From positions 1 through 50,610 of IMG/VR virus record IMGVR_UViG_3300020045_005352: DNA of 50,610 nucleotides; one strand, written 5' to 3'. Made by a program: the position numbers and the translations under genes. The notes below the pieces were generated by a model, which had not been told where the DNA came from, made no database searches, and saw only the letters and a program-made list of their open reading frames with translations. This DNA comes from a virus (Duplodnaviria > Caudoviricetes). Position 1 is the stretch's first letter. The number at the start of each line of letters is the position of its first letter. This document shows positions 1 through 23,256 of this stretch, piece after piece.

Positions 1-78
1 CTACATTCCTTGTTTCCATTAGCTTCGACTCACTGACCTACTTCGAATTTTTTCATTCTCTCCCCCTTGTTTGTGTGT
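1..78 (-). repeat. Inverted copy of 823-900 (RBS and 5' end of the 845..1012 gene), cut by the window edge
   Basis: Reverse complement of 1-78 matches 823-900 except two adjacent bases (AAA codon becomes TGA). Confidence 0.95.
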
Positions 79-96
79 TAGTAGTGTGCATGTTCT

Positions 97-124
97 ACTT
101 AACATAATTAAGATTATAGGACAT
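97..124. other. dif: dif-like XerC/XerD recombination site
   Basis: ACTTAACATAA-TTAAGA-TTATAGGACAT, 11-6-11 layout. The left arm reverse-complements to TTATGTTAAGT, one mismatch from the E. coli XerD arm TTATGTTAAAT. Intergenic. Confidence 0.85.
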
Positions 125-191
125 TGAAATGCTTTCCTTTATACAGTAAATAGGTGAAAAATTGTGAGAGAATGACCTATCCCTTACCAAC

Positions 192-211
192 TTATCAACA
201 GTTTATCCACA
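192..211 (+). promoter_or_regulatory. Tandem DnaA-box-like 9-mers
   Basis: TTATCAACA (192-200) and a perfect TTATCCACA (203-211) in a non-coding AT-rich region. Confidence 0.45.
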
Positions 212-343
212 AATCCTAATGTTATTGACAATGAAAAAGGATCTGCCTGACAAAAGGTTGTAAAAATATCCATAGCCAGAAAACAGATCCAAACACGCCA
301 GAAAAACACTTTAAAAATAATCCCATTTATTTAAATAATATAC

Positions 344-372
344 TTGACACATAAGATAGTATCGTATATACT
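344..372 (+). promoter_or_regulatory. sigma70-type early promoter
   Basis: TTGACA (344-349), 17 bp, TATACT (367-372), ahead of the first + strand gene cluster. Confidence 0.8.
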
Positions 373-423
373 CTAATCATGAAGAACAAATTAAACAATG
401 AAACGAAAACAAAGGGGGATAAG

Positions 424-804
424 ATGGAAACAATGACCGCAAAGATAGTTGATAGGATAGTTCCTGGCGATTTATTCGAAACATCATGGGGTTATGATCA
501 AACCAACTATGATTTTATAGTTGTACTTTCAATGAGTGCTTCAGGAAAGACGGCGAAATGTCAGAGAGTACACTGTAAAAACATGGGAGCAAGTGGGATT
601 GATGACTTGTTAAAGCCTATGAATGAGCCCTTTGGTGATGTATTTACCATGCATGTTAGAGAGGGTTATAAAGGGGATCTGAATTTGAAAGGTTCATACC
701 CTTTTTGCCACACTGGAAGCATGCAGAATACTAGGCTTGATAGATTTAGTCGTGTGGAAGTAGATAGAGTTTATGCCCAGACTAATTCAATGTTTGGACA
801 CTAA
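424..804 (+). CDS. Hypothetical early protein
   Basis: ORF 379..804; AAGGGGGA RBS favours ATG 424; contains SWGYDQTNYDF. Confidence 0.7.
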   Translation: METMTAKIVDRIVPGDLFETSWGYDQTNYDFIVVLSMSASGKTAKCQRVHCKNMGASGIDDLLKPMNEPFGDVFTMHVREGYKGDLNLKGSYPFCHTGSMQNTRLDRFSRVEVDRVYAQTNSMFGH

Positions 805-844
805 TAAAATGACAACCACAACACACACAAACAAGGGGGAGAGA

Positions 845-1012
845 ATGAAAAAATTCGAAGTAGGTCAGAAAGTCGAAGCTAATGGAAACAAGGAATGTAG
901 GATATTAAGATATTATTCAGAGGGAATGGTAGAAGTGCGCTTTTGGTCAGGCTTTCGCCACGTTGGTGATGCTTGCGTGCCAGAGTGTGATATCAAAGCA
1001 ATGGAGGCTTAA
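845..1012 (+). CDS. Small hypothetical protein, possibly SH3/KOW-like barrel
   Basis: AAGGGGGAG RBS then MKKFEVGQKV; the FxVGxxV start is typical of small beta-barrels. Confidence 0.6.
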   Translation: MKKFEVGQKVEANGNKECRILRYYSEGMVEVRFWSGFRHVGDACVPECDIKAMEA

Positions 1013-1016
1013 TTCA

Positions 1017-1289
1017 ATGACAACACAAGAAAACGGCGAGCGTATCAGCGAAGCGTTAACGGAAAAAGTGAGACTACAAAAAGAGAGGCAGTCTTTACTC
1101 AAAAATGAGATAGGCGATAAATGCTTTGCGGATAGTATCACGGCGGACGTCGAGCATAATCACGTTATCTTGAGGGCGGAAGTTGACGGCATATTGTTTG
1201 AAAGTGACGAGTATGACGGGGATTTAAAGGCGTGGTTACAAGCGATCATAGACAGGGGGCATGATTGCTCAATGGGCAAACTTAACTAA
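1017..1289 (+). CDS. Hypothetical protein
   Basis: ORF 963..1289; ATG 1017 follows a GGAGG RBS. Confidence 0.65.
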   Translation: MTTQENGERISEALTEKVRLQKERQSLLKNEIGDKCFADSITADVEHNHVILRAEVDGILFESDEYDGDLKAWLQAIIDRGHDCSMGKLN

Positions 1290-1305
1290 AAAAGAGGGGG
1301 ACACA

Positions 1306-1746
1306 ATGACAACACAAGCGACAAGGTTTTGGAGTAGAGTCCTTAAAACTGATACTTGTTGGCTATGGGAAGGAGCGAAGAATAGCTGGGGATATGGTCA
1401 ATTCTATCCTAATGGGAGAAAGTCTCAAGTAAGAGCGCATAGGTTTGCTTTTGAAGAGACTAAAGGAAAAATACCCAATGAAATGGTGCTAGATCATTTA
1501 TGTAAGAATAAAGCTTGTATTAATCCTAGTCATTTAGAAATTGTTACAAGTCGAGAAAATACCTTGAGAGGAGAAAGCCCACTTGCAAAATTTGCTCGTC
1601 AAACTCATTGTTTAAGAGGGCATATTCTTGATGAGAAAAATACTTATTACCCAACACCATTTAAAAGATATTGCCGTAAATGTAGGATTATAAGACAGCG
1701 TAAACATAGACAGAATAAAGCTAATAGACAAGCGGAAGGGGTGTAA
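1306..1746 (+). CDS. HNH homing endonuclease
   Basis: RFWSRV..CWLWEG..GYG..AHR..LDHLCKNKACINPSHLE..EN, then a THCLRGH/CRKC tail. Confidence 0.92.
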   Translation: MTTQATRFWSRVLKTDTCWLWEGAKNSWGYGQFYPNGRKSQVRAHRFAFEETKGKIPNEMVLDHLCKNKACINPSHLEIVTSRENTLRGESPLAKFARQTHCLRGHILDEKNTYYPTPFKRYCRKCRIIRQRKHRQNKANRQAEGV

Positions 1747-1748
1747 AT

Positions 1749-1910
1749 ATGAATAAGCCAATCAAGTATATTGATGACCTGCCTTTGGACGCAACACACT
1801 CTTTGAGAATGCTCAAGGATATATTCAAGGGTACGAGCTTTGAGAGTCAAGTCAATGAGCAATTCCTACGCAACTATAACGAGGGTAAAGAGAGGGGGGT
1901 GGGGGAATGA
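1749..1910 (+). CDS. Small hypothetical protein (53 aa, below the ORF-track cutoff)
   Basis: Read by hand: MNKPIKY..ERGVGE*; fills the gap and overlaps the next start as ATGA. Confidence 0.55.
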   Translation: MNKPIKYIDDLPLDATHSLRMLKDIFKGTSFESQVNEQFLRNYNEGKERGVGE

Positions 1911-2149
1911 GCAAGGATATATACGAGAAGATTCAAGATAGTCTACCCGAACATATAGAGAACTACTTTCGGGATAGTGGGACGGATAAGACGGATAAGG
2001 AGCTATTAGACTTTATCTGGGACAATCCGAAGGCTTGGGAGACTTTGAAAGACTTCATAGCCTCAAGCAAGCTAGGTGACAAGATAGTCGAGAGAGTATA
2101 TCAAGCTATGCCAGAAGGAGGGGAAAGAGAGTATGACAATGACCGCTAG
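1907..2149 (+). CDS. Hypothetical protein
   Basis: 80 aa ORF, G-rich RBS, overlaps both neighbours. Confidence 0.6.
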   Translation: MSKDIYEKIQDSLPEHIENYFRDSGTDKTDKELLDFIWDNPKAWETLKDFIASSKLGDKIVERVYQAMPEGGEREYDNDR

Positions 2150-2588
2150 GATACTGGTTTTATGCCTGTTTTCCTTGATTCTAGGCGTGATACCTGCTAG
2201 AGCCGATATATCAGACGAGCAGGCCATTAAAGCCATCCTAGGCGAAGCTAGGGGCGAAGGTTGGGAAACAGATCAGAATGGAAAGAAGTTCTATACTGAC
2301 CAGCTTAACTATGAAGCCATGTATGCCGTAGCCTGTGCAATACGCAATAGAGGCACATTAAGAGGGGTTTATGGGGCAACTGCTAAGACAGAGCCTATAA
2401 GCCCAGAACTATGGCAGAGGGCGTCTAAAGCTTGGTTTAATAGTGAAGACGGAGGGGATATTACACTTGGGGCAACACATTGGGAGAACATAGGCGCTTT
2501 CGGGAAGCCTTACTGGGCTAAGAATATGGCACAGACGGTTAAAGTGGGTAACCATAATTTCTACAGAGAATCTAAACGCACATCATAG
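2133..2588 (+). CDS. SleB-like cell wall hydrolase (Hydrolase_2) with signal peptide
   Basis: ILGEARGE..AVACAIRNR..DITLGATHW..VGNHNFY; hydrophobic N-terminus ending in ARA. Confidence 0.88.
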   Translation: MTMTARILVLCLFSLILGVIPARADISDEQAIKAILGEARGEGWETDQNGKKFYTDQLNYEAMYAVACAIRNRGTLRGVYGATAKTEPISPELWQRASKAWFNSEDGGDITLGATHWENIGAFGKPYWAKNMAQTVKVGNHNFYRESKRTS

Positions 2589-2596
2589 GAGATAAC

Positions 2597-2752
2597 ATGG
2601 CAAACAAACAGAGAACATTTACCTTCCCAATCACCCCTGACTTTGCGGAGGACTGGAAGAAGTTTCAGGAAGTAGCAAAGGGGGAGAATAGGTCAGCGTC
2701 TTACCTAGTTAGGGATGTACTGAAGAAGTATCTTGAGGCGGTGAAGGCTTGA
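2597..2752 (+). CDS. Ribbon-helix-helix (Arc/CopG-like) regulator, 51 aa
   Basis: Read by hand: MANKQRTFTFPIT..FQEVAKGENRSASYLVRDVLKKYL; AGGAG RBS. Confidence 0.8.
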   Translation: MANKQRTFTFPITPDFAEDWKKFQEVAKGENRSASYLVRDVLKKYLEAVKA

Positions 2753-2916
2753 AGAGGTGGCGGGAACGCTGTACGTTCTGCCTGAGATTGTTCCCAAATA
2801 CTGATGTTAATAGTATGGTATGTTTAGATTGTCTCAGGGAATATATTGCCCAGATAGCACCAAACAATTCTGGGGTAGACACCAAGCTTTTAAAATAACT
2901 ACCTTTTTAATAGAAC

Positions 2917-2939
2917 AAGGCTAGACTAAAACTAGCCTT
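2917..2939. terminator. Hairpin between convergent transcription units
   Basis: AAGGCTAG-7 nt-CTAGCCTT with T-rich flanks on both strands. Confidence 0.5.
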
Positions 2940-2946
2940 TATATTC

Positions 2947-3113
2947 CTCGTTACACTACACCTGTACTTCTTCTCTCTAAAGAGTAACATGGGTGTAACG
3001 GAAAAGGTGTAACGAGACTACAAAACAGCATATAAAGCATTGGAAAATTTAGTACTTACGTTAAAAATGAGACCCTGTTTTATCGTTACACCTAACAATT
3101 TCTGGGTGTAACG
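2947..3113. repeat. Five GTGTAACG copies in both orientations; candidate replication origin
   Basis: Copies at 2949-2956(-), 2993-3000(+), 3007-3014(+), 3084-3091(-), 3106-3113(+), spanning the helicase 3' end. Confidence 0.7.
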
Positions 3114-4001
3114 TATCGAGGAGGGCTGAATTGCGTGATGAAATTCGTCAAAAGTGAACTTCTTTCCGTTCGTTTTACAGCGAGTTATGAAAGAGTGAGA
3201 TTTTTCAACGGCGTTAATTTCTGCCTGTTTTTCTGACATAGAAAGGGTATAAGATTCAGCGTGGAAGTCCATGGAGAATTTCTTTAGCATGGTTGAATGG
3301 GAGTCCTTCTTTAAGGACATTATGCATTTATTGTCTGATTGGGTGAGGTAGTACATGCCAGTCACATGGGCTTTTAAGAATTGGCTACCCATAAATGGAT
3401 CAGACTTTGGATAATATTTTCCCTCAGCAAAATCATTGGTATTCTTTAATGTGTGGTGGTTAAACCAATTAACACAGCCAAAATGTTTTTGAATACGAGC
3501 AGAGAATTGAGCAAACATTGTGGCATCTTCGCCATCAGATAGACCACCTTTTACCATCGCATAGATTGGGTCAAATACTATGATATCGGGTTCTAAGCAA
3601 AATCTTTCTATACGTTCGATTAGAGCTGCTTCATCTTTCGGGTCAAGAACATTTATACCTATTGTTTCTTCATCGATGTAGATATTGTCGTAGTTGATGT
3701 CGATGATTTGCTTCATATGTTGCATACGTTCTAAAGGTTCCTCAACACCACGCTCAGTTAAACAATAATAAATTTTAAGTGGACGAACTGGTTGAAAGAA
3801 GCCAAAGACGGGGAGTCCTGCGGAAGCTTGAAGTGCCATACAGAGACTTAAAACTGATTTTCCAACACCAGGGTCAGCATAAACCATTATGACTAATTTT
3901 TCGTATATAAAGTTTTCAACAAGTGGTTGGCGGGGAGATATTGGAGAATCTACTAACTCTTTAAGTAGAAGACCAGTATAAGGGGCTTTAGTATTGTTCA
4001 T
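3018..4001 (-). CDS. RecA-fold helicase, RSF1010 RepA/AAA_25-like
   Basis: Walker A YADPGVGKS, Walker B IIVFDP, NHHT and FMGSQ motifs. Confidence 0.85.
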   Translation of the reverse strand: MNNTKAPYTGLLLKELVDSPISPRQPLVENFIYEKLVIMVYADPGVGKSVLSLCMALQASAGLPVFGFFQPVRPLKIYYCLTERGVEEPLERMQHMKQIIDINYDNIYIDEETIGINVLDPKDEAALIERIERFCLEPDIIVFDPIYAMVKGGLSDGEDATMFAQFSARIQKHFGCVNWFNHHTLKNTNDFAEGKYYPKSDPFMGSQFLKAHVTGMYYLTQSDNKCIMSLKKDSHSTMLKKFSMDFHAESYTLSMSEKQAEINAVEKSHSFITRCKTNGKKFTFDEFHHAIQPSSIRYTQKLLGVTIKQGLIFNVSTKFSNALYAVL

Positions 4002-4025
4002 TAGGGCTTAATCATAGATGAAAGG

Positions 4026-4112
4026 ATTCTATCACAAAATAATTCCTTGTCAAACTGTTATTTACAGAATTTGTAAATAGATGTTGACAGCTTTAGTGCT
4101 TTAGTGTAGATT
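4026..4112. promoter_or_regulatory. Back-to-back sigma70 promoters with a central palindromic operator
   Basis: Leftward TTGACA (4053-4048), 16 bp, TGnTAGAAT; rightward TTGACA (4084-4089), 17 bp, TAGATT; TATTTACA-5-TGTAAATA at 4059-4079. Confidence 0.75.
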
Positions 4113-4134
4113 ATCAATTACAAAGGAGAAAGAA

Positions 4135-4338
4135 ATGATTCTAGCGAGCAAGAATTTAAAGAAGTATCTTGAGATTGCACAGATATCAAATACAGAGTTT
4201 GCGGAGACCATTGGATTTGATACCGCCACAGTCTCACAAGTTTTGAGTGGCAAAGAAGAACCCTCTAAGAAGTTTATAGAACAGGTGATTCTTAAAACTG
4301 ATATGAAGTTTGATTCAGCATTTGAGGTGTCTGAATGA
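4135..4338 (+). CDS. XRE/Cro-like HTH regulator
   Basis: ISNTEFAETIGFDTATVSQVLSGKEEPS; 67 aa. Confidence 0.9.
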   Translation: MILASKNLKKYLEIAQISNTEFAETIGFDTATVSQVLSGKEEPSKKFIEQVILKTDMKFDSAFEVSE

Positions 4339-4814
4339 GTTGGAGAGATAAGCTTAAATGGGGTGATGAAAGCTTGAAAACTCCAGAACATGATGCTTTA
4401 GTTCTTTGGTTAAGAGACAATTTATCTTCTGTGATAGATAGCTTGAAAATTTCTCCAGAATATAAGATGGACACGCCTATTATAGAGTATCCAATAACTA
4501 ATAAACACTCCTCAATTTTATGTTTTATTGATTTGAAAGTTCTTATTGAATACATGGAGAAAGTAAGAGAGAACTTCTCCTATAAGAATCAATTAGGATT
4601 GTTATTTGAAGTAAAACCTAAAATTGAATCGTTCGGAGAGATTCTAAGACAGCTTCATTCTTATAAGATTTATTATGAAGCTAATTGTGGTAATAATTTT
4701 GGAACTGGTAAGTGTAAAGTTATTGTTGTCTCACCAGATAAAAGATTTAGAGAAGATATTGAATCTCAAGGCTTTGGATTTATCAATCCTGATGATTTTG
4801 TGGTAAAAGAATAA
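4335..4814 (+). CDS. Hypothetical protein, probable PD-(D/E)XK nuclease fold
   Basis: IEYPI..FIDL..LFEVKP..LRQLHSY. Confidence 0.55.
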   Translation: MSWRDKLKWGDESLKTPEHDALVLWLRDNLSSVIDSLKISPEYKMDTPIIEYPITNKHSSILCFIDLKVLIEYMEKVRENFSYKNQLGLLFEVKPKIESFGEILRQLHSYKIYYEANCGNNFGTGKCKVIVVSPDKRFREDIESQGFGFINPDDFVVKE

Positions 4815-5015
4815 ATGAACTCCATCCGCCGTCTATGCAGGAAGTGTGGGCATCTTTATACTTTCAAATGGCATGGAAATGATTTGAGGACACAGGCAGA
4901 GTATGACATCTGGAGCCTAGATTACACGATACACAAGCTAGAACATATAAAGGAGGAAGTCTATGAGTCAAGCCTTAAGTATCGTACATCAGTTACAAAT
5001 GGCAGAGTTGGCTAG
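4815..5015 (+). CDS. Small hypothetical protein (CxxC)
   Basis: 66 aa ORF abutting the upstream stop. Confidence 0.45.
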   Translation: MNSIRRLCRKCGHLYTFKWHGNDLRTQAEYDIWSLDYTIHKLEHIKEEVYESSLKYRTSVTNGRVG

Positions 5016-5154
5016 AATAGTTGATAAGTTTCTGGAGTTAAAGCCAGAATACTCGGGAGCTTTCTGGGATAGTATGCAGTTTGCGGAGTTTGTGATGGGG
5101 AGGTTTGACAAGATAGAGTTGGAAGAATTGGAAAAGGTAGTCTGCCCCTTCTAA
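4963..5154 (+). CDS. Hypothetical protein
   Basis: AAGGAGG RBS; TAATG overlap with the next gene. Confidence 0.6.
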   Translation: MSQALSIVHQLQMAELARIVDKFLELKPEYSGAFWDSMQFAEFVMGRFDKIELEELEKVVCPF

Positions 5155-5780
5155 TGCCTACTACTAAGCAGGAAAAAGAATCTGGTTGGCTATCAGTCAC
5201 AGAAGTCCTAGACGCTTTCATCCCCAAGGGATTACTTGCTTGGTACCTGAAAACAGGGGCTAAGGAAGCTAAGAGGCTTGGGACGGTGGCTATGAAGATA
5301 GGCTCAAGAGTTGATGAGTTAATTCAGGCTGATATAAATGGAACTAAGCCAAAGTTCTATCCTAAGGCTAATGAGATTGAAGTGGCTAATTGTATGGATG
5401 CTTGGCACAAATTTAAGCAAGATTATGACCCCATCATTGAAGCTTGCCAGATAGAGGTTAAGTCAGAAGAGCAGAAGTTGGTAGGACATATTGATCTAAT
5501 CATGGATGGCAGAGTTGTTGACATCAAATGTGCTTCCTCTATTAAGCAGAACTACTGGTTACAAGTAGCTAAATATCTAGACATGAAGAACATGACAGAG
5601 CTAGTGGATAGCACGGCAATACTGAGGTTAGACAAGAACCTTGGAACCTATCAATTCATGGTAGATACGCAAGCCAAGATTGATAACAAAAAGTGTGTAG
5701 AAGTGTTCGATGGGCTACTAACGGCCTATCGATTTTATAATCCTCCAACGGAGGAGAAAGAGGAGATATGTCAAACGTAA
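5154..5780 (+). CDS. PD-(D/E)XK exonuclease of the recombination module
   Basis: LSVTEVL..GSRVD..GHIDL..VVDIKC..LQVAKY. Confidence 0.85.
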   Translation: MPTTKQEKESGWLSVTEVLDAFIPKGLLAWYLKTGAKEAKRLGTVAMKIGSRVDELIQADINGTKPKFYPKANEIEVANCMDAWHKFKQDYDPIIEACQIEVKSEEQKLVGHIDLIMDGRVVDIKCASSIKQNYWLQVAKYLDMKNMTELVDSTAILRLDKNLGTYQFMVDTQAKIDNKKCVEVFDGLLTAYRFYNPPTEEKEEICQT

Positions 5781-6547
5781 TACTGCTTCCAACGGAAGCT
5801 ACAGAGACAGGGAATGTGTGGGCTTGCCAGAAGTTTGGAGTCTTAGGGGCACCAGGGATAGGAAAGTCTGGGATAATGGCAAGGGGAGAGAAGACGCTTG
5901 TTATTCAAACTGAGGCGGGGCTTAATCACATCAAATGTATGAAGGTTATTTGCCGAAGCTGGCAAGACTGGGAAGATATTTGGTCAGCTTTGATTAAGGC
6001 GAAGCAGGCTAAGACATTGAGCTATGACACCATTGGCATAGACACTATCGACAACTTTGTTGATTTTGCCAATGATGAGGCTGTCAGCAGAGGGCAAGCC
6101 AAGTACAAACAGGCAGACATCAATACAGTTGGAGATATTCCTAATGGGGCTGGCTGGTCATGGGCGACAGACCTTGTTAAAAACGCCTTTGAGAAGTTGG
6201 AGAGTCTTGGAGTATGTGTCTACTACATAGGACATCTTGAGTATAAGGAAGTTAAACAGCCAAACAATGTATCAATCCATAAGCAGACCATTGGCATTGG
6301 TGGTAAGACGGGAGGCTTCCTAGTCGCTTGGCCTGACCACTTGCTTAATATTGAAGCCAAACTCCAAGGAGATAAGATTTTAAGGAAAGTTCGTACTATC
6401 CCTACAGCGACCATGGACGCTAAATCAAAGGGGGCAGTAATACCGAACGGGTTCGAGCTCCTATCACCCGAGAGCCTAACAGCAGATGGGATAACTAAGT
6501 CGGACATAGAGAACTTCCAACGGATACGTTCTCTGTTCAAATCATAA
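5768..6547 (+). CDS. Sak4-like (AAA_24) ssDNA-annealing ATPase
   Basis: GAPGIGKS, IQTEAG, YDTIGIDTID, IGH, AKS; lies between exonuclease and SSB-like genes. Confidence 0.85.
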   Translation: MSNVILLPTEATETGNVWACQKFGVLGAPGIGKSGIMARGEKTLVIQTEAGLNHIKCMKVICRSWQDWEDIWSALIKAKQAKTLSYDTIGIDTIDNFVDFANDEAVSRGQAKYKQADINTVGDIPNGAGWSWATDLVKNAFEKLESLGVCVYYIGHLEYKEVKQPNNVSIHKQTIGIGGKTGGFLVAWPDHLLNIEAKLQGDKILRKVRTIPTATMDAKSKGAVIPNGFELLSPESLTADGITKSDIENFQRIRSLFKS

Positions 6548-6556
6548 GGAGTCAGC

Positions 6557-7054
6557 ATGTCATTAGTAGACCGCTTGAAAGAGTCTGGATTTAAGCCTGA
6601 GAAGTCAACAGAAGGGGAGTTTAAACCGCTTGAAGGGGTTTATGCCACTCAGTTTGTTAAGGCAGATGAGAAAGAAGCCAAAGATAAGGGAGGCAGACAG
6701 CTTCAAGTTGAGCTTAAGATAACTGAAGTGTTGGCCGGATCAGTATCTCATTCTAAATATAATGAGTTTAGGAAATATCTCCAGTTGGAAGGAGATGAGG
6801 CGGTTGATAAGAAGAAGGGGTTGCCCTGGATTATCAATGCTTTATTTACCGCAGGAGTTGAGGTTTCTGGCGGTACGGATGAAGAACTTATCCAGTCTAT
6901 CAAAGACGCTCTTGGCACAATGATTTATGTCAGAGCCTATGGATTTACTCCAGAAGATGGAGATAAGTCTTACCAAATGTTTGTGGTTATGAAGGAAGAT
7001 AAGGCTATGAAGAAGGCGGAGGAAGTTAAGAAGAAGCAGGGACATCCCCTCTAA
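6557..7054 (+). CDS. Putative ssDNA-binding protein (DUF669-like)
   Basis: FKPLEGVY N-terminal pattern; position after Sak4. Confidence 0.6.
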   Translation: MSLVDRLKESGFKPEKSTEGEFKPLEGVYATQFVKADEKEAKDKGGRQLQVELKITEVLAGSVSHSKYNEFRKYLQLEGDEAVDKKKGLPWIINALFTAGVEVSGGTDEELIQSIKDALGTMIYVRAYGFTPEDGDKSYQMFVVMKEDKAMKKAEEVKKKQGHPL

Positions 7055-7555
7055 ATGATATTGGTCTGTGACAGTCGTGAGCAAAAAATGTTGGATTTCT
7101 CAGGGATTGAAGGCATAGAGAAGATAGAAGAAATGGGGCTTTCATTCGGAGATTACACCGCTATTTGCCACGACCGTCCAGTACCAATAGTTTTTGAGAG
7201 GAAGAATTTGCAGGATTTGTTTGGGACTATGACATCTGGGTATGAGAGGTTTAAGAGAGAGATGGAGCGGGCGAAGGTGTCCAATATGAAGCTGATACTC
7301 ATAGTTGAGGGGACATATACCGATGTCTGGAATGGGACGGATTATAGTCAGTTTTCAGGTGAGTCGATGATTAAGAAGTTGCACATGCTCCAAGTGCGTT
7401 ACGACCTAGAAACAGTTTTTACGGAGTCAAGGCGGGTGATGGCTAGATACATCGCTGGGTTATTCTCTGCGGTTGAGAGGAATTGGGGTAAAGATTCCAC
7501 CTTAAAAACTGGTTTAAAAGAAAGTTCTACCGGCGTTAATAATATCAAAATATGA
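7055..7555 (+). CDS. ERCC4/XPF-family nuclease
   Basis: DSREQ..GDY..FERKNLQDL..RFKREMER..LIVEG. Confidence 0.92.
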   Translation: MILVCDSREQKMLDFSGIEGIEKIEEMGLSFGDYTAICHDRPVPIVFERKNLQDLFGTMTSGYERFKREMERAKVSNMKLILIVEGTYTDVWNGTDYSQFSGESMIKKLHMLQVRYDLETVFTESRRVMARYIAGLFSAVERNWGKDSTLKTGLKESSTGVNNIKI

Positions 7556-7656
7556 GTGTAACACCTTCCGATAGATACCTCTGTGAGGAATGTGGGTTTA
7601 GGACGGGGGATTATTGGGAGTATCAAGTTCATCAATGTAAAACAAAGGAGAATTAA
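7552..7656 (+). CDS. 34-aa single zinc-finger microprotein
   Basis: Read by hand: MSVTPSDRYLCEECGFRTGDYWEYQVHQCKTKEN*; ATGA overlap upstream, TAAATG junction downstream. Confidence 0.6.
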   Translation: MSVTPSDRYLCEECGFRTGDYWEYQVHQCKTKEN

Positions 7657-7863
7657 ATGAGCATTACCCTTACCGATTCAGATGTTAAGAAAATCAAGGC
7701 ACTTCACAAAGAGAATATGGATAGCTTGTTGAAAGTTGTGGACGGAAATGTCAACACTTCCAAGCCTCAGCCCATTACCCACAAGAACGCTTCTTGTCTT
7801 GTGGCAAAGGCTATCGGCAATCAGATCGCAATACTGAATGTGATTAATAAGGCTAGTGCGTAA
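7657..7863 (+). CDS. Hypothetical protein
   Basis: AAGGAG RBS, 68 aa. Confidence 0.65.
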   Translation: MSITLTDSDVKKIKALHKENMDSLLKVVDGNVNTSKPQPITHKNASCLVAKAIGNQIAILNVINKASA

Positions 7864-7890
7864 TCATTCGTTGGGGAATTAAAGTTACAT

Positions 7891-7963
7891 GAGGTCTTGG
7901 CCTGACAAAAGCAGAATGTCAGGAGGAAGCCAAAGAGTGCTGGGTGAAAGTCCTGGGGGCCTC
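7891..7963 (+). ncRNA. Candidate structured RNA 1
   Basis: Closing stem GAGGTC/GGCCTC; inner TTGGC/GCCAA and CTGACA/TGTCAG; 3' hairpin CTGGG-TGAAAGT-CCTGG. Confidence 0.5.
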
Positions 7964-7986
7964 GCCTAAGTTTAGCAAGAAAAGAT

Positions 7987-8072
7987 TGGCATACCTGTCA
8001 TTGGGCGAATGACAACTCCTAGAGGCCCCAAAGCCTCGGTTTGCATCACGGCAGGCGAATCCTGCTATGCCA
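7987..8072 (+). ncRNA. Candidate tRNA-like structured RNA 2
   Basis: Closing stem TGGCATA/TATGCCA; hairpins TGTCATT/AATGACA and GAGGC/GCCTC; T-arm-like GCAGG-CGAAT-CCTGC. Confidence 0.5.
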
Positions 8073-8107
8073 CAAGATTGGCTGGCAAAGCTAGAAAAGG
8101 AGAAACG

Positions 8108-8437
8108 ATGTTAGATAATTTCAAGGCAGAAAATTGGTCAGACCCAAATGGTAATCCGCATGGCGGTTCTGTTCGTGGAACTGGTCTTACGATTGATTGG
8201 CAGAATGGGCCTCTTGGTCGTGGTGCCGAAAGGATTGAACCGAATGGGGCTTTTGTTGAAACAGTAATTGCGGCAGTAGTGCAACGTATTGAGTATTACC
8301 AGACAGCAAACAATAAAAAATTTGCTTGCAGGGAAAATGCTCTCGCTATCACGAAACTTGAAGAAGCCTTGTTGTGGCTGAACAAGCGGACACAGGACAG
8401 AGAAAAAAGACAGGTTGAAGGAACACACACAGTTTAA
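8108..8437 (+). CDS. tad1: Tad1/Acb2-family anti-defence sponge protein
   Basis: WQNGP..NG..ETVI..RIEYYQ..FACRENALAITKLEEALLWLNKRTQDREKRQVEGT; AAGGAG RBS before ATG 8108. Confidence 0.85.
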   Translation: MLDNFKAENWSDPNGNPHGGSVRGTGLTIDWQNGPLGRGAERIEPNGAFVETVIAAVVQRIEYYQTANNKKFACRENALAITKLEEALLWLNKRTQDREKRQVEGTHTV

Positions 8438-8534
8438 CTATGGCTTGCCTAGCCAACTTATTAAACCTGAAAATGTGGAGGGTGGGAAGTGAAAGGAAGT
8501 ATGGGTATGGTGTGAGCATGTTGAATGGGTTGTT

Positions 8535-8771
8535 ATGAATAATGACCAATACGGAAGAAAAAGTGGTTTTGGAGCCATGACTAACCCCTCCAACTCCCTC
8601 ACAAGGGTTGATGAGAGGTGTGAGTGTGGACATGAAGAATCTAAGCATGGCAATATTATATGGAAATGTGCAGGTTACAAAGACATTAGCGGATATGGAC
8701 ATTATTCAAAATGCCATTGTGAAAAGTATCGCCCCAAACCCATCACCACATCTAAGCGAGGTAAGAGATGA
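8535..8771 (+). CDS. Small Cys/His-rich protein
   Basis: CECGH..H..C..CHC. Confidence 0.55.
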   Translation: MNNDQYGRKSGFGAMTNPSNSLTRVDERCECGHEESKHGNIIWKCAGYKDISGYGHYSKCHCEKYRPKPITTSKRGKR

Positions 8772-8977
8772 GTAAGTTATTCGCATTGAAGTCAGGAGAT
8801 ATTTTTAAGTTGTCAGGAACTCGATTTGAGTTTAGATCAGTAAAGAATAAATTTATGCCAACACTTGGCATAGTACCAAACGCTATTTGTAGAAATCTTG
8901 ATGAAGACAAGGTATCTCTGTTCACAAAAAACTTTGAAGTTGAATTAATTTCCCCACCCACCAGAAGAGGAGAGTGA
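8768..8977 (+). CDS. Hypothetical protein
   Basis: ATGA overlap, GAGG RBS. Confidence 0.55.
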   Translation: MSKLFALKSGDIFKLSGTRFEFRSVKNKFMPTLGIVPNAICRNLDEDKVSLFTKNFEVELISPPTRRGE

Positions 8978-8978
8978 G

Positions 8979-9281
8979 ATGAGAGATGTTGAATGTCCGT
9001 ATTGTGGTAAGGGTATTGAAATAGATCACGATGATGGTCAAGGTTATGCCGAGGATAAAGTTCATCAGCAACAATGCTCGGAATGTGATAAGTATTTTAC
9101 TTTTACCACGAGCATTTCTTACAACTACGATGTTGAAAAAGCTCCTTGTCTTAATGATGGCGAACATAATTGGACGCCTATTATAAGCACTCTTAAGGGT
9201 CGTGAAAGATGCTCTTATTGTGATGAGGAAAGAATTTCAGATGAAGAGCTTTATAAAAAATCTCTTAGATGTGAAGCATAA
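8979..9281 (+). CDS. Zinc-ribbon protein
   Basis: CPYCG..CSECDK..C..H..CSYC. Confidence 0.7.
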   Translation: MRDVECPYCGKGIEIDHDDGQGYAEDKVHQQQCSECDKYFTFTTSISYNYDVEKAPCLNDGEHNWTPIISTLKGRERCSYCDEERISDEELYKKSLRCEA

Positions 9282-9295
9282 CCCCAGGAACCAAC

Positions 9296-9712
9296 ATGAA
9301 AAGTGAGCCAGAAATTATAGTTTCAGATTGTGATAAGACTTTCTTTCTCTCTCATTCATGGATAGTTGGTAATAATGGGTATGTTTATTTAAGAGGTGGA
9401 AGAACTAAAGGAAAACAATGTCTCTTGCATCGTTTGATTTTACAAGCAAAAACAGGTGAAGAAGTTCATCATAAAAACAATAATCCCCTTGATAACAGAC
9501 GAAATAATTTGGAATTAACAACAGCCTCAGAACATCAAAAACATCATGTTTATGGTCTTATTGAAAGAAATGTTGGTAGGAGAAAACACTCATTAATTGG
9601 GAACTGTGAAAATTGTAAGGCTGAATTTAATAAAAATTATTATCATGCAAAAAATAATAGATTTTGTTCAAGAAAATGTTCCGCTTTGTTTAATTGGAGG
9701 AAAAGAAAATGA
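9296..9712 (+). CDS. HNH homing endonuclease
   Basis: GYV..LHRLI..VHHKNNNPLDNRRNNLE; C-terminal CxxC..FCSRKC. Confidence 0.92.
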   Translation: MKSEPEIIVSDCDKTFFLSHSWIVGNNGYVYLRGGRTKGKQCLLHRLILQAKTGEEVHHKNNNPLDNRRNNLELTTASEHQKHHVYGLIERNVGRRKHSLIGNCENCKAEFNKNYYHAKNNRFCSRKCSALFNWRKRK

Positions 9713-9939
9713 ATAAATCTGAGCCAGCGTTTCCAAGTCATGGAAGTATGGGAGAAGTTTGTTACGAAGGCATGACCCTCCGTGATTACTTTGCGGCGAA
9801 GGCTATGCAAGCATTGAGTGTAGATTTATACTTCGGAACAGTAAGCAAACCAGAAAATCCTTGGGCTTGGGTAGCAACTGAATCTTATAAAGCCGCAGAC
9901 GCAATGCTCATCGAGAGAGCGAAGGAGCCAACGCCATGA
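9709..9939 (+). CDS. Conserved phage hypothetical protein
   Basis: PAFP..GMTLRDYFAAKAMQ..Y..ADAML, a common phage family pattern. Confidence 0.8.
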   Translation: MNKSEPAFPSHGSMGEVCYEGMTLRDYFAAKAMQALSVDLYFGTVSKPENPWAWVATESYKAADAMLIERAKEPTP

Positions 9940-10421
9940 ATCAAGAAGGGAAGATGGGGAATGAGCCACTAATAAAGATTGGGCTAATACAGTATCCAGT
10001 TGAACAGCTTCTTCATGGCTGTAAACCAGAGCTTGAGCCTTGCGATAAGTATATGTGGGAACATTGTAACGAGACTATCCAAGAAGCCCTCTCCCAGAAG
10101 GACAGAGAGAAGGAGGAAGCTGTTAATAAGGTTCTCAAAGAACAGCATGAGATTCAAAATGGGCTAGCTAAAGATATTCAACATTACACTCATGTTGCCG
10201 AGGATGTTGAAAGATTAGAAGCGGAGGTTGGGAGGTTGAAAGAAACCAACGAATTATTAAACGACTCCCCCTCCCTCGAAGCCTTCAATAAACAACAGTC
10301 GGTGCTTAAGGCAGGGTTGGAGGCAATAAAAATGTATGTGGATGGAGATAAAACCGCTACAGATCAGTGGAACGCATTAGTTAAAGTCTTACGCCAAGCC
10401 AAGGAAGCAGGGCTTTTGTGA
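9936..10421 (+). CDS. Hypothetical coiled-coil protein
   Basis: 161 aa ORF coupled to neighbours. Confidence 0.6.
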   Translation: MNQEGKMGNEPLIKIGLIQYPVEQLLHGCKPELEPCDKYMWEHCNETIQEALSQKDREKEEAVNKVLKEQHEIQNGLAKDIQHYTHVAEDVERLEAEVGRLKETNELLNDSPSLEAFNKQQSVLKAGLEAIKMYVDGDKTATDQWNALVKVLRQAKEAGLL

Positions 10422-10858
10422 AAGTTGTAGAATATTTTTTAGATGAAATTAGTAACAAAACTTTTAAGACAAAAGAAGAAGCTATTAAATCAGAGAAAAA
10501 GAATGGCGGAATAAAAAAACTGTTTGGATTCTGGAAGAAAGCTGGGGATTTTAATTGTGATAACTCAAGGTGCTTTCAGAGAAGTGATGTGGATTATCTA
10601 AGACTTCAAGACGCTCTTGTAAAAGCTGTTACTGAATATGAACCTTGGATAGCCAAGCACTATGAAAAACATGGTGGCATTTCAAGAGAGCATATGCAAT
10701 CAGGTTTTATTATTGGTAGGTTTTTAGATGACGGAGGGTCTGAACTTTATCATTGGTATTGCATACTCTCTAATGTTTGTAAAACTTGTTTCAGAGAGTT
10801 TAATCAGCCTTACGGAGCAAATCATTGCACACATACAAACAAGGCTTTACTACCTTGA
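10418..10858 (+). CDS. Hypothetical protein
   Basis: 146 aa ORF, GTGA overlap. Confidence 0.65.
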   Translation: MKVVEYFLDEISNKTFKTKEEAIKSEKKNGGIKKLFGFWKKAGDFNCDNSRCFQRSDVDYLRLQDALVKAVTEYEPWIAKHYEKHGGISREHMQSGFIIGRFLDDGGSELYHWYCILSNVCKTCFREFNQPYGANHCTHTNKALLP

Positions 10859-10902
10859 CTCAAACCTCTTCTCAAGGCTTTCAACGTCAGAAGGAAGAGA
10901 GT

Positions 10903-11109
10903 ATGAGAGCAATAAGAAAGTATTCCCCAAAGATTTCAAAAGGAACTAAGGCGGCTTCCTGCGTAGTCTGTAATAAAATCTTTACAAGAGACACCTACAA
11001 TTTCTATCTTAATTCTCGTGGCTATGGAGATGGACTTTCAAGAGAATGTAGGTGGTGTGTGCTTAAGAAGAAGAAAATTGAGTGGAGGAATAGAAATCAT
11101 GTCAAATAA
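10903..11109 (+). CDS. Small zinc-finger protein
   Basis: CVVC..FY..DGL..CRWC; start chosen after AAGGAAGAG. Confidence 0.55.
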   Translation: MRAIRKYSPKISKGTKAASCVVCNKIFTRDTYNFYLNSRGYGDGLSRECRWCVLKKKKIEWRNRNHVK

Positions 11110-11266
11110 TAGTAAATCTAATAGGTGTAAGAAGTGTGGGTATAAGGTTTATTCTAGCAGTCATACAGGCAAGAAGGTGGTGTATAATCTTTTGAATAGT
11201 AGAGAGCATAGTTGTGCTCGGATAATTGAGGCTAGGAGGAAGCTTGAGAGTACTGTTCAAAGATAG
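11099..11266 (+). CDS. Small zinc-binding protein
   Basis: CKKCG..HSC; GGAGG RBS. Confidence 0.5.
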   Translation: MSNNSKSNRCKKCGYKVYSSSHTGKKVVYNLLNSREHSCARIIEARRKLESTVQR

Positions 11267-12281
11267 TAGATACCACGGCCAGCGTCAATGGGAAAAGCCA
11301 GTTGACATATACCCAGCCCACTTAAGCATGTTCTGTACCTATCTTAGGAACCAGGGTCATGAGGTTGTATGGTTTGGTAAAGATGATGGAAAATTTGACA
11401 GGATTATAGAATCAGATGAGCAGATAGATGTTGAGTTTGATAAGCTTCCTTTGCCAGATAGAAGATTAACTAATTCGATGAATCCTAAATATCTTTCATA
11501 CGGAAATTATAAGATGTCTAGGGGTACACACTATTTGTCTTCTAATCTTTGTTGGTGGGCAGGAGAACGTGGGTGCATATTTTGCCACGATTCTAGCCGA
11601 ATAATTGAAGGTGAGCCTAGACGAGTTAGATCCGTTCAACATGTTATTAATGAGATAGAAGACTGCGTAAGACTTACTCACAATGAGGCTTTTGATGATG
11701 CTGGAACTATACCTATAAATGAGTGGCTTCATGATTTTTGCAATCAAATGATTAAGAGTGGACTAAACAAGAAAATAGTGTTGGGGTGCAACCTTAAGCC
11801 AATAAAACAAGACTTTAAGCTAATGAAAGAAGCTGGATTTCGATTCATTTTGGTTGGTGTAGAGTCGGCAAACCAGAAGACTATAGACATAATTCAGAAG
11901 GGCCAACACTCAGAAAAAGTAGTAGAGAATCTAAAAGCAATGAGTGATGCTGGTCTTGAACCACACGCCACCTTTATGCTGGATTGCCCAGAAGAAACAG
12001 ATGAAGATTGTATGAGAACTGTAAAGTTGGCTCATCATCTCCTTAAAAAAGGTTATGCCAAAACAGCTCAAGCAAGTGTATATAGTCCTCCACGCACTCA
12101 ACCTGACCCAAAGTCTAAGGGTCACAGATATATTCCTATGATTTATGAAACGTACAAGTCTCCGCAGTTTTGGTACCACAAGTTTAAAGACATACGGAAA
12201 ATAGAGGATGTCACATATTTAATCAGAGGAGGCAGACTTGTCGCAGAAGAATACATCAGGAAAACGTTCAGGGTTAGATAA
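11244..12281 (+). CDS. Radical SAM enzyme related to the B12-binding class, with a shortened N-terminal domain
   Basis: CWWAGERGCIFC, RSVQHVINEI, FDD, MKEAGFRFILVGVESANQ, PEET; TTG start after GGAGG. Confidence 0.88.
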   Translation: MRVLFKDSRYHGQRQWEKPVDIYPAHLSMFCTYLRNQGHEVVWFGKDDGKFDRIIESDEQIDVEFDKLPLPDRRLTNSMNPKYLSYGNYKMSRGTHYLSSNLCWWAGERGCIFCHDSSRIIEGEPRRVRSVQHVINEIEDCVRLTHNEAFDDAGTIPINEWLHDFCNQMIKSGLNKKIVLGCNLKPIKQDFKLMKEAGFRFILVGVESANQKTIDIIQKGQHSEKVVENLKAMSDAGLEPHATFMLDCPEETDEDCMRTVKLAHHLLKKGYAKTAQASVYSPPRTQPDPKSKGHRYIPMIYETYKSPQFWYHKFKDIRKIEDVTYLIRGGRLVAEEYIRKTFRVR

Positions 12282-12393
12282 GCAGATTGAAGAGGCTCAA
12301 AAGCAGTATTCAGAGCTTCTGGCTAAGATGAAGGCTATAGGAATTAAGATTAATGATTTGGTGAGTAAGAGGTATAAATAAAAGGAGAATATA

Positions 12394-12573
12394 ATGGATG
12401 ATAAAATGATGATTGCACTAACAAAGTTTCTTGAATCTGGAGGAACTTTGGCTCTATGGGGTATCTTAATTTGGCAGGGATTGGCATATTTGAAAGTATT
12501 GACAGTTGCATTTTTCGTTTTTTCTTGTGTATGGTTAATGTCCAAGACAGTTATAAAGGCTAGAGTAAAATAA
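12394..12573 (+). CDS. Small membrane protein (59 aa)
   Basis: Read by hand: MDDKMMIAL..ARVK*; AAGGAG RBS; hydrophobic. Confidence 0.6.
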   Translation: MDDKMMIALTKFLESGGTLALWGILIWQGLAYLKVLTVAFFVFSCVWLMSKTVIKARVK

Positions 12574-12752
12574 TGCAAGACAGCTTCATTGTTTTAATTG
12601 TTCTATCAATATTTTATCTTATATTTAATGGAATATGTTGCTTTATTCTAAATTCTATTTTGGATAAAGAGTTAGATTATCAAGAAAGTATAGTTTATTT
12701 CTATACAGGAATATCTATATTAGGGCTCATAATTTTAACAACCATAATTTAA
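12573..12752 (+). CDS. Small two-TM membrane protein (59 aa)
   Basis: Read by hand: MQDSFIVLIVLSIFYLIF..LGLIILTTII*; TAATG overlap. Confidence 0.55.
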   Translation: MQDSFIVLIVLSIFYLIFNGICCFILNSILDKELDYQESIVYFYTGISILGLIILTTII

Positions 12753-12774
12753 TAATGGAAATCAGGGTGTAAAA

Positions 12775-13194
12775 ATGAATAATGTAATACAAAGAGGTTG
12801 CGAAGCTGAATTACTAATTGCTGCAGAAGCTATTAAACATGGAATTGTAGTATCTAAACCACTTTCTCATTCTAGTCCTTATGACTTTATTTTTGACAAC
12901 GGAAAAAATGTATTAAAAGTTCAATGCAAGAGAGCATATAAAATGAAAGGTTGGAATAATAAAATAGATTCTTTGTGTGTAGAAAGTAGAAGAAGATATG
13001 GCTTTAAAAAAAATGGAATAAAAATGCAAGGTAAACCATATAGATACAACGATTTTGATGTATTGGTTGCTTGTGAACCTTTAAAAAATAGATTTTGGAT
13101 TCTACCATTTAGTTTTTGTAAGAACTTTAAGTCTGGTATTTACCTAGATACTAAGAAATCAAATATTTATTTGAATAATTGGAAAATGATATAA
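12775..13194 (+). CDS. PD-(D/E)XK homing endonuclease (PDDEXK_5 / I-Ssp6803I-like)
   Basis: RG..AE..G..VSKP..PYDFI..KVQCK..Y..DFD; very AT-rich. Confidence 0.88.
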   Translation: MNNVIQRGCEAELLIAAEAIKHGIVVSKPLSHSSPYDFIFDNGKNVLKVQCKRAYKMKGWNNKIDSLCVESRRRYGFKKNGIKMQGKPYRYNDFDVLVACEPLKNRFWILPFSFCKNFKSGIYLDTKKSNIYLNNWKMI

Positions 13195-13270
13195 ACAATA
13201 AAACGGAAACTCTGTGAAACTCAGAGGCTCAGTCCTGAACGGTAAAGCCCGAATACAAATAAAGGAGAGG
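13166..13270 (+). promoter_or_regulatory. Cobalamin riboswitch (compact, class II-like)
   Basis: GGAAA-CTCTG-TGAAACT-CAGAG-GCTCAGTCCTGAACGGTAAAGCCCGAATAC matches the cobalamin core; loop TCCT is complementary to the AGGA of the downstream RBS; it precedes a BtuB-like gene. The 5' boundary is uncertain. Confidence 0.85.
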
Positions 13271-13271
13271 T

Positions 13272-15047: not shown

Positions 15048-15250
15048 AAATTGACAATCTAATCTTTTGTATATTCTACTTCTTTTGGGCATTGTCAGGA
15101 ATTATCCCAGTAGTTTGGTTTCATAAGAAACACAAGAATCCAGGTGTCTATGGGTTAATAATTTTTGCTTTGATAATGGGTCCATGCATGATTTTAGAAG
15201 CTATAGAATTTGATAAAAGAGAAGAAGAAAGACATGGTAAAAAAATATGA
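15044..15250 (+). CDS. Small two-TM membrane protein
   Basis: Two hydrophobic segments; ATGA overlap with the receptor gene. Confidence 0.65.
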   Translation: MKIDNLIFCIFYFFWALSGIIPVVWFHKKHKNPGVYGLIIFALIMGPCMILEAIEFDKREEERHGKKI

Positions 15251-15269
15251 AAATGGCAATCCTTGAGAT

Positions 15270-15620
15270 ATGGTGTGCGTTTTATGGAGCTATGCCTTGG
15301 ATAATAGGAGCGTTGACGTTATGGCTGGGTATACGGTTACTGAAGCACCGCAGGTAGAATATTTTAATCTTAATCTTGATGAGAGTGGGTTCTTCTTTCT
15401 GATAAAGCCAGATTTCTCTACTGGTAAGATTCAGGTTGTGATTAAGAATGATTTAGAGATTAAAGAAGTAGTTACTGGGAATAGATGTCAGGATATTTAC
15501 AACTACATCATATTCAACTATGAGCAGTATCTATCCAAGCTTCATTGTTGCTATCTAGGCAAAGAGCTTAAGAAGGCGGAGATTGCTATGGTTACAGGTG
15601 GGAGTTATTATCAGGAATGA
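15270..15620 (+). CDS. DUF4346-domain protein (start uncertain)
   Basis: LDESGFFFLI..DIY..HCCYLGKELKKAEIAM..G..Y.QE. Confidence 0.75.
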   Translation: MVCVLWSYALDNRSVDVMAGYTVTEAPQVEYFNLNLDESGFFFLIKPDFSTGKIQVVIKNDLEIKEVVTGNRCQDIYNYIIFNYEQYLSKLHCCYLGKELKKAEIAMVTGGSYYQE

Positions 15621-16366: not shown

Positions 16367-16382
16367 ATTATCCCAAGGAGTT

Positions 16383-17456: not shown

Positions 17457-17631
17457 TCATTACGTTAAGCCCTGTGCCGGAGATGAAGGCTAGGGCATTC
17501 TTGCCTACTTCCATACGTTCTTTGTGAGTAAGCCCTTCCGCATTGGCGTCATGTCTATTGCCAAAGATGTAAGAAGCGGACACAAAGGTATCCACTAGGC
17601 TTGATAGAGCCATGGTGGTAATAAATACCAT
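17380..17631 (-). CDS. Hypothetical protein
   Basis: ATG 17631 within ORF 17380..17814; fills the gap between two genes. Confidence 0.5.
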   Translation of the reverse strand: MVFITTMALSSLVDTFVSASYIFGNRHDANAEGLTHKERMEVGKNALAFISGTGLNVMIEYYQLDYNADKIRKQFFGIFKVSI

Positions 17632-17641
17632 GTTTCTATAG

Positions 17642-23053: not shown

Positions 23054-23256
23054 ATTAATCCTGTAACTGTGATTGCGGTCAAGAATGTCAGTACCTTATC
23101 AAAGATATAAAGTTTCACAGCTTCTTTCATAACATCTCGTACTGGGATGTTAAGTTTCTCCATACGTTCTATGAGTTCTGTGGAGTCATCGATGAGAGGC
23201 TTTAGGGTGTACTCTATGAAAGCCCCAAAAGGCTTAGGGTCAGGTGAGAGTTGCAA
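23014..23256 (-). CDS. Small membrane protein
   Basis: C-terminal TM helix. Confidence 0.55.
   Translation of the reverse strand: MQLSPDPKPFGAFIEYTLKPLIDDSTELIERMEKLNIPVRDVMKEAVKLYIFDKVLTFLTAITVTGLICYTALRFLPITR

Follow-up and report, generated by a model that had tools for sequence, protein, structure and literature searches.

Tyrosine recombinases place different demands on the two parts of their target sites, in that the centres of the partner sites must match and the arms need only bind the proteins. The plasmid sites cer, psi and pdif serve multimer resolution by XerC and XerD, and phage P1 relies on Cre and loxP. In the latter case, a tyrosine-recombinase site belonging to a tailed phage, with a 13-8-13 layout and identical arms, circularises and resolves the phage's own DNA. 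A third arrangement is that of IMEX such as CTXphi, whose genomes are inserted at the dif site of the host by its XerC and XerD proteins. Within the excerpted text of the open-access literature that was searched, the viruses described as using host Xer are filamentous phages, microviruses and double-jelly-roll phages (PMC12715192, PMC3091885, PMC7062461, PMC9226527, PMC6744903), and no tailed phage using Xer or dif-like sites was found there.

The DNA analysed here, called the window below, comprises an entire IMG/VR virus record (50,610 bases), whose ends are classed as linear and whose completeness is put at 95% by CheckV. It is best explained as the genome of an SU10-like podovirus of roughly 52 kb. 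Close to its left end, in non-coding DNA, positions 97-124 carry a 28-base dif-type site, which reads ACTTAACATAA TTAAGA TTATAGGACAT on the plus strand and ATGTCCTATAA-TCTTAA-TTATGTTAAGT on the minus strand. The latter order runs from a XerC-type arm (114-124, ATGTCCTATAA) through a six-base centre (108-113, TCTTAA) to a XerD-type arm (97-107, TTATGTTAAGT), giving an 11-6-11 layout with an inner ATAA...TTAT symmetry. On the plus strand, 10 of 11 bases of the arm at 97-107 agree with the Vibrio dif motif on its XerD side, as that motif is printed in the excerpted text of PMC12715192. The arm at 114-124 would be the XerC arm, a name given from its position relative to the conserved XerD-type arm. 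A sigma-70-like promoter (344-372) lies 220 bases downstream of the site.

The two arms differ greatly in significance depending on whether they are considered singly or together. When the pattern ATAA-N6-TTATGTTAAGT was searched with up to two mismatches, the window gave one match against 0.34 expected, and at least one match was present in 31 of 100 shuffles. Thus, the XerD-type arm with its inner ATAA, taken alone, is within chance and not significant. Both arms together significantly exceed chance. In a two-arm scan the site has no mismatches at 20 scored positions and is the only one in the window with up to four arm mismatches, a threshold at which shuffled windows yielded 0.185 sites each; by arm and centre layout and by inner symmetry, it belongs with the dif-type XerC/XerD core sites. 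By a hand estimate, a random split 20-mer would be expected to match about once in 596 Gb. The exact 28-mer had no match in viral_contigs, and no DNA similarity was found between window positions 1-4000 and the phage collection.

The origin of the arms becomes apparent upon comparison with bacterial genomes. Searching one genome per prokaryote species with the window arms and a free six-base centre gave matches in at least 120 species genomes, and 23 loci among the matches listed (121 sites recovered) are identical at all 22 arm bases. The XerC-type arm thus has exact host matches when paired with the XerD-type arm. Fifteen of these exact-arm loci have readable titles: ten are Bacteroidota, two are labelled Planctomycetia, two are labelled Omnitrophota, and one is a MAG labelled Rhizobium. 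The matched host site is single-copy in all five Bacteroidota genomes checked. Along a complete Pedobacter chromosome, most windows to the left of the site have positive GC skew (7 of 11), and all those to its right have negative skew (9 of 9). A single-copy site at the switch from positive to negative skew, as seen in this one chromosome, indicates that the host sites are chromosomal dif sites and that the phage copies both of their arms. The arms therefore match a single-copy terminus dif of plausible hosts, with the terminus position taken from the one complete Pedobacter chromosome. A dif site was predicted in 19 of 19 Bacteroidetes genomes according to the excerpted text of Kono et al. 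(PMC3025954). The description in the earlier note of a dif-like 11-6-11 site with a near-consensus XerD arm was thereby confirmed and extended to both arms, which equal host dif at 22 of 22 bases.

The centre is another matter. Among the matches listed, the 121 host sites have the centres TTAATA (51), TTTATA (27), TTTACA (21) and a few others, and none of these centres is within two mismatches of TCTTAA. Every sampled host centre differs from that of the phage at three or more of the six positions, with position 2 among them on the XerC side, and positions 4-5 on the XerD side. Centres from Omnitrophota (TATATC, TGTATC, TGTATG and others) are also unlike TCTTAA. A 19-mer made of the phage centre and the inner arms was found at 23 loci in species genomes (genome_contigs), with a best match of 25 of 28 bases, and none of these 23 carries the phage's XerC-type arm (the GTCCT arm). 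A comparison of the 28-mer with host dif sites, as the earlier note had recommended, thus succeeds for the arms and fails for the centre, which matches no sampled host. The phage site combines host arms with a private centre.

The arms were also used to narrow the range of hosts. For this purpose a 22-position arm pattern with up to two mismatches was applied to two phyla, in place of a loose 18-position pattern that had matched 136 of 301 Bacteroidota and many controls. The stricter pattern matched 39 of 181 Omnitrophota genomes, five of them exactly (one being the genome chosen as the centre of the set), with no control matches, and 29 of 301 Bacteroidota genomes, one of them exactly, with three control matches. 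The Omnitrophota label rests on the title of G417, and the MAG labelled "Planctomycetia" (G416) falls in the same phylum set. Two arm variants carried by relatives of the phage are present in the Omnitrophota records and in none of the 29 Bacteroidota records: ACGTCCTATAA in 22 of 40 and TTATGTTAACT in 9 of 40. Furthermore, of 48 ATG-start ORFs in the window, 29 follow a Shine-Dalgarno-like motif, compared with 15% of random positions, and the early promoters are sigma-70-like. Both Shine-Dalgarno motifs and sigma-70-like promoters are unusual for Bacteroidota. Because the arm variants track Omnitrophota and the phage uses such motifs and promoters, Omnitrophota are favoured over Bacteroidota. 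Judged from these sequence features, the host is probably a member of the Omnitrophota, with Bacteroidota a distinctly weaker prospect. The idea in the earlier note that the site might identify the host therefore holds to the level of phylum but does not give a unique answer, since exact arms are present in both Omnitrophota and Bacteroidota. Whichever phylum is correct, suitable proteins are available, as two strong Xer paralogues are encoded in all five Omnitrophota and all five Bacteroidota genomes checked, and the candidate hosts have one dif. Another possible host clue was examined and set aside. The window encodes a 591-aa TonB-dependent receptor with Plug and beta-barrel domains (13272-15047), which is an unusual cargo gene for a phage. 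It has no close relative in genome_contigs, and at 25-37% identity it matches 44 of 251 Bacteroidota (E<=1e-10) and 34 of 151 Acidobacteriota genomes (a tally that includes G469), so it is uninformative.

The gene content of the phage bears on how such a site might be used. Searches with Pfam and PHROGs revealed no tyrosine or serine recombinase among 66 ORFs or among 30 further small or unassigned ORFs, and neither PF00589 nor PF00239 matched the window translated in six frames. The earlier note had reported no recombinase in the window, and this observation stands. Thus, no recombinase of the phage's own is encoded in 50.6 kb, with 1-2.6 kb unassembled. Genes for a CI-type repressor, for partition or for a plasmid-type replication initiator were likewise not recognised among the window ORFs. 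The only candidates are a Cro-like HTH protein (4135-4338) that scores 21.8 bits against a cut-off of 23 and is therefore sub-threshold, and a weak RHH protein (2597-2752).

The genes of the window are divided between the two strands. The early arm (379-15620, plus strand) is complete in the window, lacks a recombinase gene, and is headed by the promoter at 344-372 (TTGACA and TATACT separated by 17 bases; 11 of 12 positions); comparable near-consensus promoters are seen by eye in L003 and L004. The remainder (15644-50609, minus strand) holds genes for glycan modification and radical-SAM enzymes, tail genes, a capsid gene (43753-44673), an SU10-type portal gene (46918-49203) and the end of the large terminase gene (TerL). 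The terminase piece at 50094-50609 encodes the C-terminal 171 residues; by tblastn, residues 333-502 of the 502-aa TerL of the relative G003 correspond to window positions 50609-50097. About 332 TerL codons and the remaining intergenic DNA are thus missing between the end of the window and position 1. The CheckV value implies that up to about 2.6 kb is absent, so that the unassembled portion is about 1-2.6 kb, of which about 1.0 kb must be the 5' part of TerL. With the two ends joined, the site falls where the terminase gene and the early arm diverge.

Several other features of this genome deserve mention. Within the structural strand, the block at 15644-27090 encodes glycosyltransferases, methyltransferases, a B12-binding enzyme, SPASM radical-SAM enzymes, a GDP-mannose 4,6-dehydratase, a deacetylase and a cupin; it is common to the relatives and probably modifies a glycan, on either the virion or the host surface. 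A 142-aa ORF (8009-8437) matches the Acb2/Tad1 hairpin domain at 26.8 bits, which is borderline against a cut-off of 27, and also matches phrog_2428, and its product may be an anti-CBASS or anti-Thoeris sponge. Five genes of homing-endonuclease type, HNH in kind with one LAGLIDADG-like, are located at 1261-1746, 9296-9712, 26342-26758, 29021-29464 and 43123-43725. In the relative L270, an insertion is suggested by a terminase match that is broken into 868-996 and 1441-2706.

The immediate surroundings of the site include an inverted repeat. Positions 1-78 pair with 823-900, are 97% complementary with two adjacent mismatches, and represent a decayed inverted copy of the start of the gene at 845 (its RBS and 18 initial codons), in which a stop follows the eighth codon. 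This left repeat arm ends 18 bases from the dif-type site and reaches the contig end, and the two repeat arms enclose the site, the early promoter and a gene for a 141-aa protein. The repeat could have arisen by true inversion or duplication, and might then mark an invertible segment, or else by fold-back during assembly. The enclosed gene (379-804, plus strand, with ATG at 424 the likelier start) is the first early ORF and the neighbour of the site, and all of its 109 homologues are hypothetical proteins. It was considered as a candidate Xer accessory factor and rejected. Across 100 loci with a homologue (80 metagenomic and 20 viral; 454,688 bases), the dif-like site is present only in L003 and L444, which are apparently one phage, and the other dif-like matches (3 found, 1.24 expected) are at chance level.

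Related phages provide a test of whether the site is retained. Portal and capsid searches of IMG/VR revealed a clade (G001-G004, G571-G573 and several fragments) whose members have structural and glycan genes in common, and TerL homologues are present in all of these relatives. A two-arm scan of 40 viral loci (330,553 bases), with up to four mismatches, returned seven matches in six loci; about 1.2 would be expected by arithmetic from the shuffle rate. Sites located upstream of TerL, with up to 4 of 20 arm mismatches, are present in five of ten evaluable relatives and comprise four distinct sequences, and the shuffle rate predicts only about 0.009 such sites per 2.5-kb region. With TerL placed by tblastn and its start positions estimated, these sites are 271 (G003/L277), 441 (L270), 389 (L274), 1139 (L275) and 652 (L279) bases upstream of the gene, the last having the same sequence as that of L275 over the 50 bases printed. 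The corresponding region has no site in G001/L269, G004/L278 or L280. In G571 there is a doubtful, noise-level candidate about 185 bases from TerL (ATGTCCGATAA-GGTATC-AAGTGTTAACA, 5 of 20 mismatches). An apparent D-D site in G573 proved to be an 8-4-8 palindrome that is present twice. This phage has neither a dif-like site nor a recombinase, and the two direct copies of its palindrome (AACATACC-AAGC-GGTATGTT and a variant; L534, 87-185), located upstream of TerL, may represent another kind of protein-binding element in this position. Relatives whose upstream region is cut by a contig end were left uncounted (L261, L263, L264, L267, L268, L271, L272/L273 from G002, and G572); G002 has a doubtful match to the XerD arm only, at 49728. 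Runs of C are found in the TerL-upstream region (L405 1-40, L407 10540-10579, L409 15815-15830) and poly-C at both contig ends of G002, which probably explains assembly breaks in this clade. Overall, the conservation that had been called for in relatives was found as a positional site in half of the evaluable phages, and in the other half the site is absent or doubtful.

The phage sites also differ among themselves. When read from XerC-type to XerD-type arm, the XerD-type arm is conserved (TTATGTTAAGT, TTATGTTAACT or TTATGTAACGA), whereas the XerC-type arm and the centre vary across the seven sites and the printed flanks cannot be aligned by eye. None of the seven centres equals a common host centre, and orientation relative to TerL is not conserved. 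A further example comes from G005, an SU10-like phage that has only the 141-aa gene in common with the window and carries GCAGTACATAA-TTAGTA-TTATGTTAAGT in its own divergent region. Beyond these phages, among other viral contigs (L144-L260) that share ATAA-N6-TTATGTTAAGT, 26 of 119 sites also have a XerC-type arm with up to two mismatches, against about 4.5 expected by a hand calculation. Several of these 26 two-arm sites are on contigs of 31-49 kb that are unrelated to the clade, only 1 of 5 of which has a tyrosine recombinase, and many others are on contigs of 4-10 kb. As far as sequence can indicate, dif sites of host type may be common among uncultivated viruses.

Two relatives encode recombinases of their own. 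G003, a circular-type assembly with direct terminal repeats, has a portal protein 52% and a capsid protein 64% identical to those of the window; its first early gene encodes a 295-aa Xer-like recombinase (XerC model, 2e-34, below the cut-off of that model) with no relatives in viral_contigs besides itself. Its site, ACGTCCTATAA-TAGATA-TTATCGGACGT, is palindromic, consists of two XerC-type arms and lies in a 1.1-kb gap before TerL. G571 is 100% complete by CheckV, its capsid protein is 81% identical to that of the window, and it encodes a 308-aa Xer-like recombinase about 2.4 kb into the early arm, for which the nearest solved structures are XerC-like, XerA, XerH and XerD. The two recombinases are only 22% identical to each other. 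Five fragmentary relatives, which are 11-39% complete and therefore uninformative, gave no match to PF00589.

From these data we infer host XerC and XerD binding, the recombination partner and the purpose of the site as follows. Host XerC would bind 114-124 and host XerD would bind 97-107. Strand exchange would then be expected between phage copies, which share one centre, and would be disfavoured with the host dif, because the host arms should recruit the host proteins and the private centre should allow efficient crossing only with copies of the site itself. The putative site might in this way convert dimers or multimers of a circular replicating or persisting form to monomers, or alternatively close a terminally redundant genome into a circle, and relatives that have both an Xer-like recombinase and a site at the same place would perform the same job with their own enzyme. 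Recombination among phage copies, for multimer resolution or circle closure, is our tentative choice of function, held at somewhat less than an even chance. The identity of both arms with host dif, the private centre, the sites upstream of TerL in relatives, the Xer-like recombinases of G003 and G571, the complete early arm without a recombinase, the failure to find integrated relatives and the two Xer paralogues of the candidate hosts count in its favour. Other observations count against it. The site is absent or doubtful in five of ten evaluable relatives (G001, G004, L280, G573 and G571) and so is not a core function, and no conserved accessory sequences lie beside it. Multimer resolution is not obviously needed by a phage that packages its DNA from concatemers. 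In addition, recombination by XerC and XerD at the chromosome requires FtsK at the septum, which raises the problem of how a phage site would be activated. A persisting circle is also unsupported by the gene content, given the lack of recognised partition and replication-initiator genes and a Cro-like HTH protein that is sub-threshold.

The competing explanations draw on much of the same evidence. Under IMEX-type lysogeny, a circular phage genome would be inserted at the host dif by host XerC and XerD, and the site would be the attP. This is rather unlikely, even though it accommodates both a 50.6-kb sequence free of recombinase genes and a full-length dif mimic with host arms. It is also the case that attP centres of IMEX such as CTXphi and VGJphi often differ from that of dif, which counts in favour of integration, and the centres of G003 (TAGATA), L270 (TATAAA) and L274 (TAAATA) differ from the host centre TATATA at a single base. 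Precedents in the excerpted text of two papers include full-length 28-base dif-like attP sites in non-tailed IMEX phages (PMC12715192) and integrase-less microvirus proviruses flanked by dif-like sites in Bacteroidetes (PMC3091885). However, the window centre differs at three or more of six positions from every sampled host centre, no species genome was found in which these arms flank TCTTAA, and no repressor was recognised. Searches for an integrated relative point in the same direction. Portal peptide patterns revealed no relative in species genomes (genome_contigs), and capsid relatives were found neither in 401 Bacteroidota genomes nor in 39 genomes of the Omnitrophota order with exact-arm dif. 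Among 531 capsid homologues, those listed (120, with 65-92% identity) are all on contigs of 54,153 bases or less, many of them 49-54 kb. The only bacterial-genome match for this capsid family (621 genomes searched) is a 4,889-base contig (C76; L559/L560) in the Omnitrophota MAG G754, one of 181 Omnitrophota genomes, whose capsid protein is 36% identical. These searches covered sampled genomes and short metagenome contigs, in which no relative integrated at dif was found, and they speak to "not found" and not to absence. The earlier note had proposed that the phage either integrates at dif or persists as a circle resolved by Xer. What appears from sequence to be a genuine Xer-type site, together with the lack of a recombinase, agrees with that proposal in part; both uses are putative, and integration at dif is the less favoured of the two.

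A different possibility is that the site is the attP or resolution target of a phage Xer-like tyrosine recombinase encoded in the unassembled part, which the earlier note had named as a finding that would overturn its proposal. That G003 and G571 each encode such an enzyme near this region, and that up to about 2.6 kb may be missing according to CheckV, lend this explanation some credit. Nevertheless, it is quite improbable. In both relatives the gene is in the early arm on the early-gene strand, and the equivalent arm of the window (from the promoter at 344 to 15620) does not have it. About 1.0 kb of the gap has to be TerL, and the DNA between site and TerL is non-coding in G003 (271 bases) and G571 (about 185 bases). 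Synteny with these two phages therefore suggests that the gap most likely holds the 5' end of TerL and a spacer. Also, the window arms are a host pair of XerC type and XerD type, unlike the palindromic same-arm pair of G003. Perhaps instead the site has no role in recombination, and is a relic of a recombinase module or of captured DNA, a decoy for XerC and XerD, or a regulatory site beside divergent promoters. Its patchy distribution among relatives, its inconsistent orientation to TerL, the promoter in the same intergenic region and the evidence for rearrangement provided by the inverted duplication at 1-78 can all be reconciled with an unused site. A relic would be unlikely to keep 22 of 22 arm bases while the flanks and centre diverge, and full two-arm sites have recurred at this location in distinct phages, which points to selection, so that disuse is an unlikely explanation as well.

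Recombination among phage copies would have several implications. This would be the first tailed phage to depend on host Xer proteins, and it would provide a handle on host identity for a phylum with almost no known phages. It is conceivable, albeit doubtful, that an SU10-like clade with genomes of 50-54 kb, whose hosts are probably Omnitrophota, retains a site-specific recombination module next to its terminase gene. Some members would encode their own recombinase, whereas others, the window phage among them, would have lost that gene and carry a mimic of host dif with a private centre, leaving circularisation or resolution of the genome to host XerC and XerD. A clade that alternates in this manner between an Xer-like enzyme and a host-type dif mimic at a fixed position would show recombinase outsourcing in Caudoviricetes. 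The arm variants of the clade, which track the dif variants of Omnitrophota, might also serve as a sequence-based host predictor for this mostly uncultured phylum. The system would be simple to reconstruct at the bench, requiring only a 28-mer and two host proteins.

Among known systems, the closest in sequence is the chromosomal dif of Omnitrophota and Bacteroidota, with which the phage site shares its 11-6-11 layout and both arms. The pattern across phages, with a conserved XerD-type arm and a variable XerC-type arm, is also that of dif sites. In contrast, the TCTTAA centre was not seen in the sampled hosts, and the phage site adjoins a terminase gene and not a replication terminus. The attP sites of IMEX viruses (CTXphi, VGJphi and TLCphi, dif-type DJR viruses, and Bacteroidetes microvirus proviruses) are similar in being dif mimics of viruses that lack an integrase, although the excerpted accounts describe those viruses as small, non-tailed and present as integrants at dif, in some cases next to an Xer activator gene, xafT (PMC12715192, PMC3091885). 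The window phage is instead tailed and roughly 52 kb, no integrated relative was found for it, and its neighbouring gene is not linked to dif-like sites. The plasmid sites cer, psi and mwr and the pdif sites of Acinetobacter resemble it in having a XerC/XerD core with a non-dif centre on an extrachromosomal replicon. They differ in that cer and psi have accessory sequences and pdif sites are paired, whereas the seven phage sites, with flanks compared by eye, have no conserved accessory sequence, occur singly in each genome, and are not accompanied in the window by recognised maintenance genes. Finally, P1 Cre/loxP is a system in which recombinase gene and site belong to the same genome. The window phage departs from it in having no recombinase in its 50.6 kb and two different host arms, but its relatives G003 and G571 follow it more closely, as each carries a recombinase gene and a site, doubtful in G571, in the same region.
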